64,000 nucleotides of DNA from an uncultured Flavobacteriaceae bacterium. GTDB taxonomy: Bacteria; Bacteroidota; Bacteroidia; Flavobacteriales; Flavobacteriaceae. The notes under the pieces were generated by a model. The model saw only the letters and a program-made list of their open reading frames with translations, made no database searches and was not told the DNA's origin. Position 1 is the stretch's first letter, and every line of letters starts with the position of its first letter. This document shows, in pieces, positions 5,137-9,920 of this stretch. The stretch lies in the NCBI GenBank assembly GCA_963740155.1, contig CAVUDE010000004.1:33454-97453 (forward strand). Direction: 5' to 3'. The position numbers and the translations under genes were made by a program.

Positions 5137-5481
5137 TTACTTCACCTGGTTCACCACTGCTTTAAAAGCGTCTGGGTGGTTCATGGCAAGATCTGCCAAT
5201 ACCTTGCGGTTAAGTTCTATGTTGTTCTTTTTCACAGCTCCCATAAATTGTGAGTAGCTCATACCGTACTGGCGAGCGCCAGCGTTGATACGGGTAATCC
5301 ATAACCTGCGGAAAGTGCGTTTCTTGTTTCTTCTATCGCGGTAAGAATAAAGCATTGCTTTATCCACTGCGTTTTTGGCTACTGTCCAAACGTTCTTTCT
5401 ACGACCGAAATAACCTTTTGCCTGCTTGAGGACTTTTTTTCTGCGAGCTCTGCGAGCTACGGCGTTTACTGATCTAGGCAT
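5137..5481 (-). CDS. rplT: 50S ribosomal protein L20
   Basis: [29 protein letters not shown]...LWITRINA...[10 protein letters not shown]. Confidence 0.99.
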
Positions 5482-5574: not shown

Positions 5575-5772
5575 TTACTTAAGATTAAGTTGTAGCTTGA
5601 TATTAGGCTCGTCTGCTTTATCGACGAGGGTAGTGTGCGTAAGCGCTAGCTTACGTTTCTTGCTCTTTTTTGTCAGGATGTGACTTTTAAAAGCGTGCTT
5701 TCTTTTAATCTTTCCAGTTCCAGTAAGCTTGAAACGCTTTTTGGCGCTGGATTTTGTCTTTTGTTTAGGCAT
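5575..5772 (-). CDS. rpmI: 50S ribosomal protein L35
   Basis: [36 protein letters not shown], 65 aa from the ATG at 5772. Confidence 0.98.
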
Positions 5773-5831: not shown

Positions 5832-5839
5832 CAAAAGTA
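5832..5839 (-). promoter_or_regulatory. Bacteroidota -7 promoter element for rpmI-rplT
   Basis: TACTTTTG on the - strand matches TAnnTTTG, 59 bp upstream of the rpmI ATG. Confidence 0.55.
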
Positions 5840-5940
5840 AGTTTTTTATTTGGGTTTGCGGGCGATAAACACACTTAAAATATGAATCTACCTTACTGAT
5901 CTTTGTACTCGTAATTCTAGCTTATCGAGAGACAAATGCT

Positions 5941-5962
5941 AGTTCGAGCGAGAGTCGAGAAC
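5941..5962 (-). repeat. REP-like short repeat (GTTCTCGACT-nn-CGCTCGAACT type)
   Basis: The reverse complement GTTCTCGACTCTCGCTCGAACT matches 27768-27789 at 19/22 positions. Confidence 0.6.
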
Positions 5963-6036
5963 GGGATTAATTATTCTACCGCTCCATCCTCGCAGCCTGC
6001 GCTTTGCTAACTAACGACCTGTGAGCACTATTTTTA

Positions 6037-6165
6037 GTCAAGCTGAATTTATTTCAACTTCTCACTGCTAGGAGCAAATACCTAGATAATCGCACCATAC
6101 CATCCATGAGATATATACTCGGTTTCCTTGCGTCCTGGGCGATACCGAAATAAATTCGGTATGAC
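6037..6165. repeat. Inverted pair of GTCA-tagged REP-like hairpins
   Basis: GTCAAGCTGAATTTATTTCAACTTCTC (6037-6063, +) and GTCATACCGAATTTATTTCGGTATC (6141-6165, -). Confidence 0.6.
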
Positions 6166-6274: not shown

Positions 6275-6715
6275 TTAGAATCCTAATCTCTTTTCGGACT
6301 TTAATTCCTTGAGAAACAAACTGAAAATGTATGGGTCATTCATAAAATCACAGAAGCGAATGATGGTACATGAATCACCTAGCTTTACGGCTTCAAAATC
6401 CCAACCAGGGAGAATCTTTGAAGAGCATGTGGTAGCTCGTGGATCGTCAGCTATATATTCAGTTTTATTTGATTCAATTGCAGGTGGGATGGCATTACCC
6501 ACTGCCAATAAAAATCTACCTTCCTCATTGGGTTCTTTTGATACATAGATTTGCACCTGTATTTTGCCATGTTCTTTAAAACCCTCAGGCCATTGACTTA
6601 AGTCAACATGAATCCCTGGAGGGTACTTCAAATTTTCTGATGAAGAATTTTCCATCTCTTGAGAAAAACCGAACATAGACAAACTAAAAAATATAAGAAC
6701 TAGTTTACTGGACAT
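6275..6715 (-). CDS. Hypothetical secreted protein
   Basis: 146-aa ORF with a Sec signal (…SMFGFSQ); no family recognised. Confidence 0.6.
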   Translation of the reverse strand: MSSKLVLIFFSLSMFGFSQEMENSSSENLKYPPGIHVDLSQWPEGFKEHGKIQVQIYVSKEPNEEGRFLLAVGNAIPPAIESNKTEYIADDPRATTCSSKILPGWDFEAVKLGDSCTIIRFCDFMNDPYIFSLFLKELKSEKRLGF

Positions 6716-6740: not shown

Positions 6741-6764
6741 AAAAGCCACCTCACGGTGGCTTTT
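6741..6764. terminator. Terminator downstream of the infC duplicate
   Basis: AAAAGCCACC-TCAC-GGTGGCTTTT perfect hairpin; paralogous to 7324-7345. Confidence 0.75.
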
Positions 6765-6784
6765 AAAATATCAAAGTAATTTAT

Positions 6785-7009
6785 TTACTTCTTCTTAGGA
6801 GCGATAAACATATTCATACGTTTACCCTCCATTTTAGGCATCTGCTCAACTTTTCCTAGCTCTTCCAGATCTTTTGCGAGATTCAATAATAGAATCTCAC
6901 CCTGATTTTTATAGATAATAGATCGTCCCTTGAAGAAAAAGTAAACTTTTGGTATAGCACCTTCTTAAAGAAATTTTGCGGCGTGTATCTTTTGGAACTT
7001 AAAATCGTG
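6785..7009 (-). pseudogene. infC: Partial duplicate of the last 75 codons of infC
   Basis: Colinear with 7401-7625 at a constant 616-bp offset. Encodes …FFKGRSIIYKNQGEILLLNLAKDLEELGKVEQMPKMEGKRMNMFIAPKKK*. In-frame TAA at 6965-6967; no 5' part of the gene. Confidence 0.9.
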
Positions 7010-7045
7010 TTTACGCAATTTGTTCTCTATACAATGGATTTTGCA

Positions 7046-7312
7046 TTACCATAATAGAAAATAATACATCACTATCAAAAAAAATAGTTGTATAAGATTC
7101 AACCAAATTCGATTTTTAAGGAGTTTATAGGCAGCGTAGTGTAATAAAAGCATAAACAAAGCAAGGCCGAGAAATAAAAGCGATAATCCCGCACTCAATC
7201 CGTATGGATCGTCCAGTCGCCATTCCTTTAGTTGCCAGTACAAGATCCAGCCAATAATACAAGCCACCGTTACCGACCAAACAGTGATTCGTTTTTTTAA
7301 GAACTGCCACAT
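7046..7312 (-). CDS. Small hypothetical membrane protein (about 3 TM helices)
   Basis: 88-aa ORF with three hydrophobic segments, lying between infC and its duplicate. Confidence 0.65.
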   Translation of the reverse strand: MWQFLKKRITVWSVTVACIIGWILYWQLKEWRLDDPYGLSAGLSLLFLGLALFMLLLHYAAYKLLKNRIWLNLIQLFFLIVMYYFLLW

Positions 7313-7323
7313 AATAGTTCATC

Positions 7324-7345
7324 AAAAAGCCACCCTAAGGTGGCT
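7324..7345 (-). terminator. Terminator after infC
   Basis: AAAAAGCCACC-CTAA-GGTGGCT hairpin. Confidence 0.7.
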
Positions 7346-7400
7346 CATAATTTTAAAAAAATAGTCCATCAATCATTAAAAAGATCGACCAATATAAATA

Positions 7401-7958
7401 TTACTTCTTCTTAGGCGCGATAAACATATTCATACGCTTGCCCTCCATCTTAGGCATCTGCTCCACTTTTCCTAATTCTTCCAGATCTTTTGCGAGGTTC
7501 AATAATAGAATCTCGCCCTGGTCTTTATAGATGATGGAACGTCCTTTAAAGAAAACGTAGGCTTTCAGCTTAGCTCCCTCTTTAAGGAACTTTTCAGCGT
7601 GTTTTTTCTTGAACTCGTAATCGTGCTCATCCGTATTAGGGCCAAAACGTATTTCCTTGATCACCACCTTACTGGCCTTAGCCTTCATGGCTTTTTCACG
7701 CTTGTTTTGCTCGTAAACGTATTTCTTGTAATCCAGAAGTTTTGCTACCGGTGGATCAGCATTGGGAGAAATCTCGACAAGGTCTAGTTCCTTTTCCTGT
7801 GCGATCTTCATCGCATCACGGGTATCCATGACTTTGGGCTCTCCCTCACCGGGTTGAACCAGGCGTACCTGTCTTGCACGAATCTTCTCGTTGATCTTGT
7901 GCTTGTCTTCTTTAATAATCCGGGCGGGGCCGCGGCTTCTGCGTCTTCGTATTGCTAT
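7401..7958 (-). CDS. infC: Translation initiation factor IF-3 with a non-canonical ATA start
   Basis: The frame extends upstream of the tracked Met: ATA GCA ATA CGA…=(M)AIRRRRSRGPARIIKEDKHKINEKIRARQVRLV. Contains KEIRFGPNTDEHDYEFK and AYVFFKGR. An alternative ATA lies at 7964. Confidence 0.93.
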   Translation of the reverse strand: MAIRRRRSRGPARIIKEDKHKINEKIRARQVRLVQPGEGEPKVMDTRDAMKIAQEKELDLVEISPNADPPVAKLLDYKKYVYEQNKREKAMKAKASKVVIKEIRFGPNTDEHDYEFKKKHAEKFLKEGAKLKAYVFFKGRSIIYKDQGEILLLNLAKDLEELGKVEQMPKMEGKRMNMFIAPKKK

Positions 7959-7973
7959 GGCTATAAATTTTAA

Positions 7974-9920
7974 TTAAACTTCAAATGTCTTTATGGTTTC
8001 GGCTACTTCTGCTTGTACCGCTTTCGCGAAAGCGTCCACACTCATAGCACCCAGGTCCTCACCACCATGTTTTCTTACAGAAACCGTACCATCGTTCTCC
8101 TCCTGCTCGCCCACGATAAGCATGTACGGCAGCTTGTTCATCTCTGCCTCGCGTATCTTCTTGCCCATGGTCTCTGCGCGATTGTCAATAGTACAGCGAA
8201 TTTCGTTATTTTCCAGAGCGTCAGCTACTTTTTTTGCATAATCTTCAAACTTTTCACTTAAAGATAGCACCGTACACTGCTCTGGCATCAACCACAGCGG
8301 GAAATTACCGCCTGTATGTTCCAGTAAAATTGCGATAAAGCGCTCCATGGAACCGAATGGCGCGCGGTGGATCATTACCGGCCTGTGTGACTCATTGTCA
8401 CTACCTTTATAGGAAAGCTCAAAACGCTCTGGCAGGTTATAATCCACCTGAATCGTTCCCAGCTGCCAGCTACGGCCCAGCGCATCTTTTACCATAAAGT
8501 CCAGTTTAGGACCATAAAAAGCCGCTTCTCCTTCCTCAATCACAAAGTTCAATCCCTTGTCCCGCGAGGCGCTGATGATTGCATTTTCTGCGATCTCCCA
8601 GTTTTCTGTATCCCCTATATATTTCTCTGGTTTCTCTGGATCGCGCACACTTACCTGTGCGGTAAAGTTCTCAAAACCCAGTGAGCCAAAAACATACATG
8701 ACCAGATCAATCACTTTCTTAAATTCCTCGTCCAGCTGTTCTGGCATACAGAAAATATGCGCATCATCCTGCGTAAATCCACGTACACGCGTCAGTCCAT
8801 GCAACTCCCCACTCTGCTCATACCGGTACACGGTACCGAATTCTGCAAAGCGTTTAGGCAAGTCTTTATAAGACCATTGAGCGCTTTTATAGATCTCGCA
8901 GTGGTGCGGGCAATTCATGGGCTTGAGCATGAACTCCTCGCCCTCGTTAGGTGTTTTGATGACCTGGAAAGAATCCTCACCGTATTTGGCAAAGTGTCCA
9001 GAGGTCACATATAATTCCTTGTTCCCTATATGAGGTGTCACCACCATCTCGTAGCCCGCCTTTTTCTGGGCAGCTTTCATGAAGTTCTCCAGTCGCTCGC
9101 GCAACGCGGCACCTTTAGGCAGCCACAATGGCAGCCCCTGCCCTACTTTCTGAGAAAAAGTAAATAATTGTAATTCCTTACCCAGCTTGCGATGATCGCG
9201 CTTTTTTGCCTCTTCCAGCAATTCTAGGTATTCCTTTAAGTCTTTTTGTTTGGGAAAAGAGATACCGTACACCCTAGTCAACTGCGGGTTGTTCTCGTCA
9301 CCGCGCCAGTAGGCACCGGCTATGCTCATGATCTTGACTGCTTTTACGATCCCAGTATTGGGAATGTGGCCACCACGGCATAGATCAGTAAAGGTATCGT
9401 GATCGCAAAAGGTGATATCACCATCGGTCAGGTTCTCGATGAGCTCGACCTTGAATTTGTTTTCTTCATTTTTATAGAAGTCCAGTGCATCTGCTTTAGA
9501 AACACTGCGCATTTTAAACTCGTGCTTGCCACGAGCAATTTCCAGCATGCGTTTCTCGATGGCAGGAATATCAGCCTCGGTGATGGATTTATCCTGAAAA
9601 TCTATGTCATAATAGAATCCGTTTTCTATGGATGGGCCTATGGTAAGCTTTGCCTGTGGGAACAAATCCTGGATGGCCTGCGCCATAATGTGGGACGTAC
9701 TGTGCCAGAAAGCCTGTTTTCCCTCATCGTCATTAAAAGTATAAAGGACAAGTTTGCCGTCTTCCTGCAAAGGTGTGGAAGTCTCTACTTTTTTGCCGAT
9801 ATAAGATGCACTTATTACATTGCGCGCCAGCCCGTGCGATATAGTCATCGCCACGTCCATGGGTGTGGAACCTTGTTCCATTTCTTTGATACTGCCATCT
9901 GGCAGGGTAATCTTTATCAT
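7974..9920 (-). CDS. thrS: Threonine--tRNA ligase
   Basis: TGS domain, HSTSHIMAQA, DLCRGGH, LKPMNCPHHC, GLTRVRGFTQDDAH, AFYGPKLD, IHRAPFGSMERF. Confidence 0.99.
   Translation of the reverse strand: MIKITLPDGSIKEMEQGSTPMDVAMTISHGLARNVISASYIGKKVETSTPLQEDGKLVLYTFNDDEGKQAFWHSTSHIMAQAIQDLFPQAKLTIGPSIENGFYYDIDFQDKSITEADIPAIEKRMLEIARGKHEFKMRSVSKADALDFYKNEENKFKVELIENLTDGDITFCDHDTFTDLCRGGHIPNTGIVKAVKIMSIAGAYWRGDENNPQLTRVYGISFPKQKDLKEYLELLEEAKKRDHRKLGKELQLFTFSQKVGQGLPLWLPKGAALRERLENFMKAAQKKAGYEMVVTPHIGNKELYVTSGHFAKYGEDSFQVIKTPNEGEEFMLKPMNCPHHCEIYKSAQWSYKDLPKRFAEFGTVYRYEQSGELHGLTRVRGFTQDDAHIFCMPEQLDEEFKKVIDLVMYVFGSLGFENFTAQVSVRDPEKPEKYIGDTENWEIAENAIISASRDKGLNFVIEEGEAAFYGPKLDFMVKDALGRSWQLGTIQVDYNLPERFELSYKGSDNESHRPVMIHRAPFGSMERFIAILLEHTGGNFPLWLMPEQCTVLSLSEKFEDYAKKVADALENNEIRCTIDNRAETMGKKIREAEMNKLPYMLIVGEQEENDGTVSVRKHGGEDLGAMSVDAFAKAVQAEVAETIKTFEV
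8018..8035. repeat. Iterated palindrome copy inside thrS (AFAKA frame)
   Basis: CCGCTTTCGCGAAAGCGT. Confidence 0.9.

Follow-up and report, generated by a model that had tools for sequence, protein, structure and literature searches.

A divergent duplicate of the infC 3′ end and a small membrane protein gene in the infC-rpmI spacer of an uncultured Flavobacteriaceae bacterium

The stretch of DNA considered here is a 64,000-nt window from the genome of an uncultured Flavobacteriaceae bacterium, and all positions given below count from the first nucleotide of this whole window unless a contig is named. The genome is represented by a 3.32-Mb assembly in 7 contigs, with a completeness of 96% and a contamination of 1.5%, and the locus lies on contig C4; we label the genome G000 and its congeners G309, G312, and so on. 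Within the window, the gene for translation initiation factor IF3, infC, is followed by a second, partial copy of its own 3′ end, with a small membrane protein gene, here called TM88, located between the two.

Layout of the infC locus

The genes at this locus are all encoded on the minus strand in the order thrS, infC, TM88, the infC 3′ fragment, an open reading frame (ORF) of 146 codons (ORF146), rpmI, and rplT. Segments 6785-7009 and 7401-7625 form a direct repeat of 225 nt that aligns without gaps at 84% identity and with an offset of 616 nt. The upstream copy (7401-7625, minus strand) comprises the last 74 codons and the stop codon of the functional infC gene (7401-7964, minus strand), whose translation is 96-98% identical in amino acid (aa) sequence to the IF3 proteins of G309 and G312; the downstream copy is the fragment. 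This pair was found by repeat search and codon alignment and was recovered by blastn within the window at E = 3e-65, in agreement with the initial annotation, which had reported that the last 75 codons of infC recur 616 bp downstream without indels. These are the only two copies of the infC 3′ end in the entire 3.32-Mb genome.

Each copy is followed by a hairpin terminator. Terminator 1 (GCCACC-TTAG-GGTGGC with a T run; 7325-7345, minus strand) lies 56 nt past the infC stop codon and is orthologous to the infC terminator of G309, while terminator 2 (AAAAGCCACC-GTGA-GGTGGCTTTT; 6741-6764, minus strand) lies 21 nt past the stop codon of the fragment. A search of the 3.32-Mb genome for the pattern GCCACC-N3-6-GGTGGC returned two matches, which are these two hairpins, both of the form GCCACC-N4-GGTGGC with a T run. 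Because the genome holds no further match to the pattern, the terminators are paralogous to each other rather than examples of a generic motif, as had been proposed at the outset. The spacers between stop codon and hairpin differ in length (56 versus 21 nt), and the terminators are therefore 584 nt apart and not 616. The 21-nt spacer of the fragment cannot be aligned to the 56-nt spacer of the real gene, to which the corresponding spacer of G309 still aligns. The first 12-19 nt of the fragment spacer resemble the flank type of congeners outside the clade defined by two derived IF3 residues, N and K (see below), and the immediate flank of the fragment, “TAAATAAATTACTTT”, resembles the flank type that is common across the genus (e.g., G014 and G301).

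TM88 (7046-7312, minus strand) begins 13 nt past terminator 1 and corresponds to the 88-aa membrane protein gene that the initial annotation had placed between the copies. An exhaustive HMMER search identified three homologs of 90-95 aa, with E values from 3e-7 to 8e-4. Since these proteins align with TM88 end to end and have the motifs DPYGL and KNRxWLN in common with it, we take TM88 to be a real, if rare, small membrane protein gene. Searches of Pfam, PHROGs, and NCBIfam gave no match to TM88, and an exact-protein look-up and a word-seeded homology search were both empty. The homologs sit on short metagenome contigs of low GC content, and none of the three has a piece of infC beside it within the available flanks. 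Scored against native hexamer usage, TM88 has a value of -0.22, an atypical composition that is non-coding in appearance, and it is absent from the 38 congeners with the exception of one weak match at an unrelated locus in G316. By these comparisons we regard TM88 as foreign to the genus and horizontally acquired, and as a gene that is not habitually packaged with infC ends.

The functional infC frame itself has no ATG, GTG, or TTG start codon. Only ATA codons precede the conserved N-terminus of the protein (AIRRRR..., approximately 7950-7964), and the likely start is one of the ATA codons at 7964, 7958, or 7952. This suggests initiation at a non-canonical AUA codon, which would be consistent with the autoregulation of IF3 known in other bacteria. 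The upstream neighbor, thrS (7974-9920, minus strand), encodes a threonyl-tRNA synthetase of 648 aa that is 86-94% identical in aa sequence to its orthologs in congeners, where the order thrS-infC-rpmI-rplT is conserved; on the other side, rpmI (5575-5772, minus strand) and rplT (5137-5481, minus strand) encode ribosomal proteins L35 and L20 in this same conserved order. In dozens of draft assemblies of the family a contig starts or ends at a point just upstream of thrS that is approximately 2.5-3 kb away from the infC end, which suggests that a conserved repeat, such as an rRNA or tRNA cluster, adjoins thrS across the family. Scans of the locus for tRNA genes and Rfam families found nothing relevant.

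Mosaic divergence of the fragment and the identity of the native infC end

The infC fragment is composed of two parts that have diverged from the functional gene in very different ways. Its 5′ part, the first 24 codons (6938-7009, minus strand), is decayed: 21 of 72 nt differ from the functional gene, with 10 non-synonymous changes, including a TAA stop at codon 15, against 6 synonymous ones, and dN is 0.19. Its 3′ part, 50 codons and the stop codon (6785-6937, minus strand), looks intact and differs almost only synonymously. Compared codon by codon, the last 51 codons show 14 synonymous and 1 non-synonymous (D to N) codon differences, 16 nt in total; by the Nei-Gojobori method, the last 50 sense codons have 15 synonymous differences and 1 non-synonymous difference, with a dS of 0.89, a dN of 0.008, and a dN/dS of approximately 0.009. 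The two parts differ significantly in their synonymous and non-synonymous changes (Fisher p = 0.002). A two-rate model places the breakpoint at nt 93-113 of the repeat (permutation p = 0.003). The codon counts and the sharp split given in the initial annotation were reproduced, and its description of the locus held in all details that were checked. The replacements are all on the side of the fragment, as the real copy equals the consensus of 50 relatives. The decayed 72 nt are 60-75% identical to every infC gene in the genus, compared with 74-86% for the equivalent segment of the real copy. Expressed as unselected divergence, the 153-nt part has accumulated at most approximately 0.04 substitutions per site (1 change in 121 non-synonymous sites) and the 72-nt part approximately 0.19.

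This pattern indicates that the 3′ part of the fragment was under selection at the protein level until recently. A simple duplication in place followed by neutral decay is ruled out, because the 3′ part differs almost only synonymously: the ratio of synonymous to non-synonymous differences is 15:1 in codons 25-74 versus 6:10 in codons 1-24. Gene conversion from the real copy was also rejected, as it would erase the 14 synonymous differences, and the changes expected afterwards would be approximately 2 non-synonymous to 1 synonymous versus the 1:15 observed. From the sequence comparison, in-register recombination between two infC 3′ ends of different history is required, as in the logic of Campbell-type integration; two infC ends, each once the working end of a gene, must by this reasoning have been brought together and joined in register to an older, dead piece of infC. 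Since the two parts of the fragment have different ages, recombination at infC-end homology would have happened at least twice. The initial annotation had described the downstream copy as a hybrid, and this holds insofar as the fragment joins a 5′ part that died long ago to a 3′ part selected until recently; its further proposal, that the 3′ part is the former end of the host gene, is not borne out by the flank orthology and base composition described below.

One candidate for a site-specific crossover point was considered and rejected. A 9-7-9 palindrome, GCGAGATTC-TATTATT-GAATCTCGC, is located inside the infC coding sequence at 7492-7516 and 6874-6898, with one mismatch in each copy at different positions. 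Its shape is like that of a recombinase core site, its chance expectation is approximately 0.1-0.2, and it is confined to this lineage because of an R to N codon change. It is placed 3′ of the boundary between the two parts (codons 24-26), and because codons 25-39 beyond that boundary keep a synonymous to non-synonymous ratio of 6:1, the palindrome is not the point of crossover.

The fragment can be placed within the genus by its residues and by phylogeny. The derived residues N and K (LLLNLAK, where LLLRLAQ is found elsewhere) occur in G000, G309, and G312 only, and the fragment has both. In a maximum-likelihood (ML) tree of the last 150 nt, the fragment, the real end, G309, and G312 form a clade with support of 98/96, within which the fragment and the real end do not pair; the fragment falls outside a group of the real end and G312, with weak support. 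The fragment thus looks like an allele from a congener.

The comparison with the sister species G309 bears on which of the two ends belongs to this genome. Directly behind infC, G309 has a 57-nt spacer and a terminator, and 66 nt of this flank match the real spacer and terminator 1 of G000 at 75% identity. G309 also has a positional homolog of ORF146 and lacks both TM88 and the infC fragment. As G309 matches in the flank and in ORF146 and is without TM88 and the fragment, the locus of G000 can be described as a G309-like frame with approximately 600 nt added. The GC content at third codon positions (GC3) of real infC is 0.52-0.55 along the whole gene (0.55 at the 3′ end versus 0.52 in the rest), while that of the intact part of the fragment is 0.42, the same value as that of TM88. 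With thrS and rpoB as yardsticks of divergence between G000 and G309, the real 153-nt end shows a proportion of synonymous differences (pS) of 0.63 and the two yardstick genes 0.66. Because the flank is orthologous to that of insert-free G309 and GC3 is homogeneous along the gene, we consider it likely that the infC end in use, together with the 56-nt spacer and terminator 1 behind it, is native and that the downstream fragment was imported. This is the opposite of the polarity in the initial annotation, according to which the inserted element rebuilds IF3 with an end of its own.

Absence of recurrence and plasticity of the infC-rpmI spacer

The survey for further instances covered 301 genomes of the family, one per genus, and 38 congeners. 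Among the 301 genomes, G000 alone has a second match to the infC C-terminus, the double match in G285 being a gene split over two contigs. The 38 congeners have a single copy each, and in the 21 congeners whose infC-rpmI spacer was examined none contains an infC fragment. The initial annotation had envisaged a recurrent system of cassettes, each ending in an infC fragment and accumulating behind infC; such cassettes were found neither in the 38 congeners nor in the approximately 300 genera, and the homologs of TM88 are not by infC. A lack of infC fragments in relatives was among the outcomes that the initial annotation had itself named as refuting its model. The interval between infC and rpmI does vary within the genus, but without cassettes bounded by infC fragments.

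Neither between nor near the repeats is there an ORF for a recombinase, and the whole genome has only three tyrosine recombinases of family PF00589, on contigs C1, C5, and C7. No integrase-bearing element was found behind infC in any genome examined, and a scan of IMG/VR detected no phage attachment site (attP) consisting of an infC fragment. The two GenBank phage matches inspected both contain full-length infC and no attP fragment; one of these genes lies in a thrS-infC-rpmI-rplT block beside an integrase and is apparently the host flank of a predicted prophage. A literature search found no report of infC as a bacterial attachment site (attB), and a metagenome scan for the lineage-specific peptide LLLNLAKDLEE gave two chance matches and no infC. 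Elsewhere in the genome, a search for local two-copy repeats returned 23 others, a few of which involve gene 3′ ends; those that do contain indels and frameshifts and have no cassette structure in common. Two such partial duplications of gene 3′ ends, located 1-2 kb past the intact gene, were noted at C7:740403-740594 / 741499-741688 and C4:228384-228559 / 230451-230636 (contig coordinates). They involve the C-terminus of a TonB-dependent receptor and a hydroxylase-like gene, and they contain indels and stop codons, with small ORFs in between.

The spacer between infC and rpmI is itself variable. In 29 other genomes of the family the apparent distance between the two genes is 36-206 nt, the 28 from other genera falling at 36-156 nt and the largest value belonging to one congener. 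Spacer lengths within the genus are 98-948 nt, with more than 4 kb in two species. The additional DNA of these congeners is in every case placed between the infC stop codon and a conserved block, TTACTTTTGCA, upstream of rpmI, and it consists of terminators, REP-like short repeats (REP, repetitive extragenic palindrome), and small ORFs with signal peptides. By these comparisons the spacer is a soft spot in the genus and not a site of cassettes bounded by infC fragments. In G304 (locus L055) and G326 (locus L056), rpmI-rplT is not found within 4 kb of infC, and a 201-aa signal-peptide ORF and further genes come next.

ORF146 (6275-6715, minus strand) encodes a 146-aa protein with a signal peptide and aligns over its full length, with 22% identity over 144 aa (pairwise E = 4e-6), to a 166-aa signal-peptide ORF at the same position in G309 (locus L045), approximately 310-760 nt past the infC stop codon; thrS is 94% identical between the two species. 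ORF146 is thus probably native to the spacer, and the low identity would reflect either very rapid evolution of a secreted protein or the replacement of the allele. Its hexamer score is 0.23. Among 5.8e9 proteins it matched only itself, and an exact-protein look-up was empty.

Three short REP-like blocks follow at 5933-5963, 6037-6073, and 6116-6148, each with approximately 20-28 copies in the genome. Such blocks (e.g., TTCGAGCGAGAGTCGAGAACGGG) occur partly in tandem arrays with a spacing of approximately 190-200 nt, and similar TCGAGCG..AGTCGAGAA blocks are present in the infC-rpmI spacers of G309, G303, and G334. They look like a REP-like family or one akin to miniature inverted-repeat transposable elements (MITEs), so far uncharacterized. 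Nearer to rpmI, a weak 38-nt match at 5834-5871 (minus strand) to 6773-6810, with 74% identity, covers the last 8 codons of infC, the stop codon, and the following “TTACTTT”, and abuts the conserved rpmI promoter block. In a shuffle test by local alignment, 9 of 1000 shuffles scored as high, a value uncorrected for 5 tests. This very decayed segment may be a still older remnant of an infC end.

Synonymous divergence between G000 and G309 is lower in rpmI (pS 0.27) and rplT (0.42) versus 0.63-0.66 in thrS, infC, and rpoB, which hints at further recombination tracts that end in the spacer; codon bias is a possible contributor. As a separate observation on rpoB, the open frame around its Rpb2_6 domain (contig C7, 966638-968179) is 828 aa long versus 1273 aa in three congeners, suggesting a frameshift, a sequencing error, or an assembly break.

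Origin of the insert and comparison with known systems

We give roughly an even chance to the reading that the arrangement is a lineage-specific scar of a homology-driven insertion behind infC, either of the Campbell type or homology-facilitated, and not part of a recurring cassette system. Approximately 0.6 kb of foreign DNA would have entered the infC-rpmI spacer with TM88, its own infC 3′ end, and a terminator, the imported end and terminator having their source in another species of the three-species clade {G000, G309, G312}. Entry would have been by way of approximately 280 nt of similarity to the resident infC end and terminator, in the form of a single Campbell-type crossover of a circularized fragment or of homology-facilitated illegitimate recombination (HFIR) of linear DNA. 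The last 153 nt of the fragment would then have been the functional end of a gene in another genome until recently, and the first 72 nt, dead for much longer, may derive from an infC-like fragment already present on one of the partners. We infer this crossover mechanism, its polarity, and the order of events from a set of plain observations, namely the duplication, the mosaic, the absence of the insert from relatives, the foreign cargo, and the orthologous native flank. There is no sign of present mobility of the unit.

Several points weigh against this reading. A single insertion does not explain where the older, decayed 72-nt piece came from, for which a second event has to be assumed. Measured as raw identity, the two 150-nt segments are more similar to each other (89.3%) than to G309 and G311 (87-88%). 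Against most relatives, these segments approach saturation at synonymous sites. Two copies do not suffice to locate the crossover, and a cyclic permutation of the unit is possible, which leaves room for the polarity of the initial annotation. Also, a donor genome that combines the flank type of the fragment with the N/K signature was not found among the genomes compared, and the comparison is based on one genome per species.

The first alternative, which we consider unlikely, is the model put forward in the initial annotation, in which a 616-bp circle without an integrase carried a new 153-nt infC end, its spacer, terminator 1, TM88, and the decayed 72-nt arm, and integrated by a crossover near codon 25. 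The C-terminus of IF3 would then be borne by the element, and the 153 nt of the fragment would be the displaced native end. This would account for the sharp boundary between decayed and intact parts and for the near-absence of replacements in the displaced end, it would agree with the resemblance of the fragment flank TAAATAAATTACTTT to the flank type common in the genus (G014, G301), and it would make the locus an exact analog of icd/icdC at e14 (PMC13626634). However, the 56-nt spacer and terminator 1 would have to be DNA of the element, yet they are orthologous to the flank in element-free G309. The real 153 nt show no special closeness to G309, with a pS of 0.63 against a genome baseline of 0.66 for thrS and rpoB, and the GC3 of the real end is that of the rest of infC. 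The model also lacks a second instance in 338 genomes, and the homologs of TM88 do not lie beside infC.

Less probable still is a relic, resembling a streptococcal cis-mobilizable element (CIME), of a larger site-specific element for which the infC 3′ end was the attB and from which the integrase and most genes were later lost; this element could have been a prophage, an integrative and conjugative element (ICE), or an integrative and mobilizable element (IME). The architecture is fitting in that a gene 3′ end is duplicated with mostly synonymous differences, with cargo in between and no recombination genes, and the 3′ ends of rpmG, rpsI, fda, and rplL are known to harbor CIMEs as well as microCIMEs of 130-220 bp that contain no genes (PMC7563491). 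The possible third remnant by rpmI could likewise mean that the site was used serially. Against this, an integrase-bearing element at infC is absent from the 38 congeners and the approximately 300 genera, no attP with an infC fragment was seen in IMG/VR or in the inspected GenBank phage matches, and the literature search found no report of infC as attB. In addition, a fixed core site would not be expected to come with 72 nt of decayed homology on the upstream side of the boundary, and the relic has the same difficulty with polarity as the integrase-less circle.

We are slightly more doubtful again of a micro-cassette without a recombinase, in which TM88 would travel among congeners with the last 51 codons of infC and the terminator as a homology arm and be integrated by the RecA protein of the host. 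Either end could then be in service, only the regularly used part of the arm would be selected while the 5′ remainder decayed, and the remnant on the rpmI side would reflect serial accretion. If true, this would produce the sharp mosaic seen here, and the locus would be important only in the case that relatives carry the TM88 unit as such a self-targeting, recombinase-free cassette.

Very unlikely, in our estimation, is a partial tandem duplication in situ whose last 50-57 codons are under purifying selection, either translated (e.g., from an ATA or ATT start) or otherwise functional. The two copies are the closest pair by raw identity and both have the derived N and K residues, dN/dS is approximately 0.009, and the frame is open for 59 codons past the TAA. 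The first canonical in-frame start, however, does not come before codon 42, while the synonymous-only pattern begins at codon 26, and one half of the C-domain of IF3 would probably not fold. The spacers behind the copies cannot be aligned, though that of the more distant G309 can, the ML tree leaves the copies unpaired, and the 72-nt part has a dN (0.19) below half of the value expected from dS/2 if both parts dated from one event. Finally, an assembly artifact joining two strain variants of the infC end is hardly credible, even in an assembly of 7 contigs with 96% completeness and 1.5% contamination, as an assembler would not confuse copies at 84% identity, the decayed 72 nt with a stop codon and 10 replacements are impossible for any working infC allele, and a biological origin is evident from the order of the structure, which is in frame and free of gaps and has two distinct terminators.

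On the preferred reading, that of a homology-driven insertion scar, a duplicate with synonymous differences only would serve as a datable record of two independently functional alleles of an essential gene end joined by recombination. It would show that small foreign genes can enter the normally tight infC-rpmI-rplT operon without a dedicated recombinase, and within one genus it singles out the spacer between infC and rpmI as unusually plastic.

The closest precedents for the architecture are insertions into the 3′ ends of housekeeping genes. In E. coli K-12 the mobile segment e14 (as also phage 21) occupies the 3′ end of icd, with a second copy of this end, icdC, beyond it and largely synonymous differences between the two, as described in PMC13626634, which cites Hill et al. 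1989. The likeness is that the 3′ end of a housekeeping gene is repeated at both borders of an insert with mostly synonymous differences. In contrast to e14, which is 15 kb long with its own site-specific recombination, the unit here is approximately 0.6 kb long and carries one small gene and no recombinase. Also, unlike e14, which supplies the working end of the gene, the working end here is apparently native, and upstream of the boundary the infC fragment has an additional stretch that is decayed and much older.

The streptococcal CIMEs and microCIMEs at the 3′ ends of rpmG, rpsI, fda, and rplL are without integrase, sometimes without genes, and can accumulate in tandem (PMC7563491). They are bordered by repeats of a housekeeping gene 3′ end and have no recombination or transfer genes, and the infC unit has both of these properties. 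CIMEs, however, are defined by att sites that the integrase of a related ICE or IME recognizes, and they usually occur beside such elements, whereas the 338 Flavobacteriaceae genomes showed no ICE or IME with infC as its target. In its length (225 nt plus the terminator) and its divergence, the infC repeat resembles a homology arm more than a core site. With no integrase, no related integrase-bearing element at infC, and no recurrence, the infC unit does not belong to the e14 or the CIME family.

In a Campbell-type single crossover or in HFIR, homology to a resident gene anchors incoming DNA without a dedicated recombinase and leaves the cargo beside a duplicated or partial anchor. These processes alone would be insufficient for the older, decayed 72-nt piece of the fragment. 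They do match the arrangement in that a direct repeat of infC end plus terminator flanks the insert. The sister species G309 has the site free of the insert. As general processes that define no family of elements, they also predict a one-off scar, as the survey shows, and we regard the locus as a single instance of this known kind of scar rather than a new mechanism.

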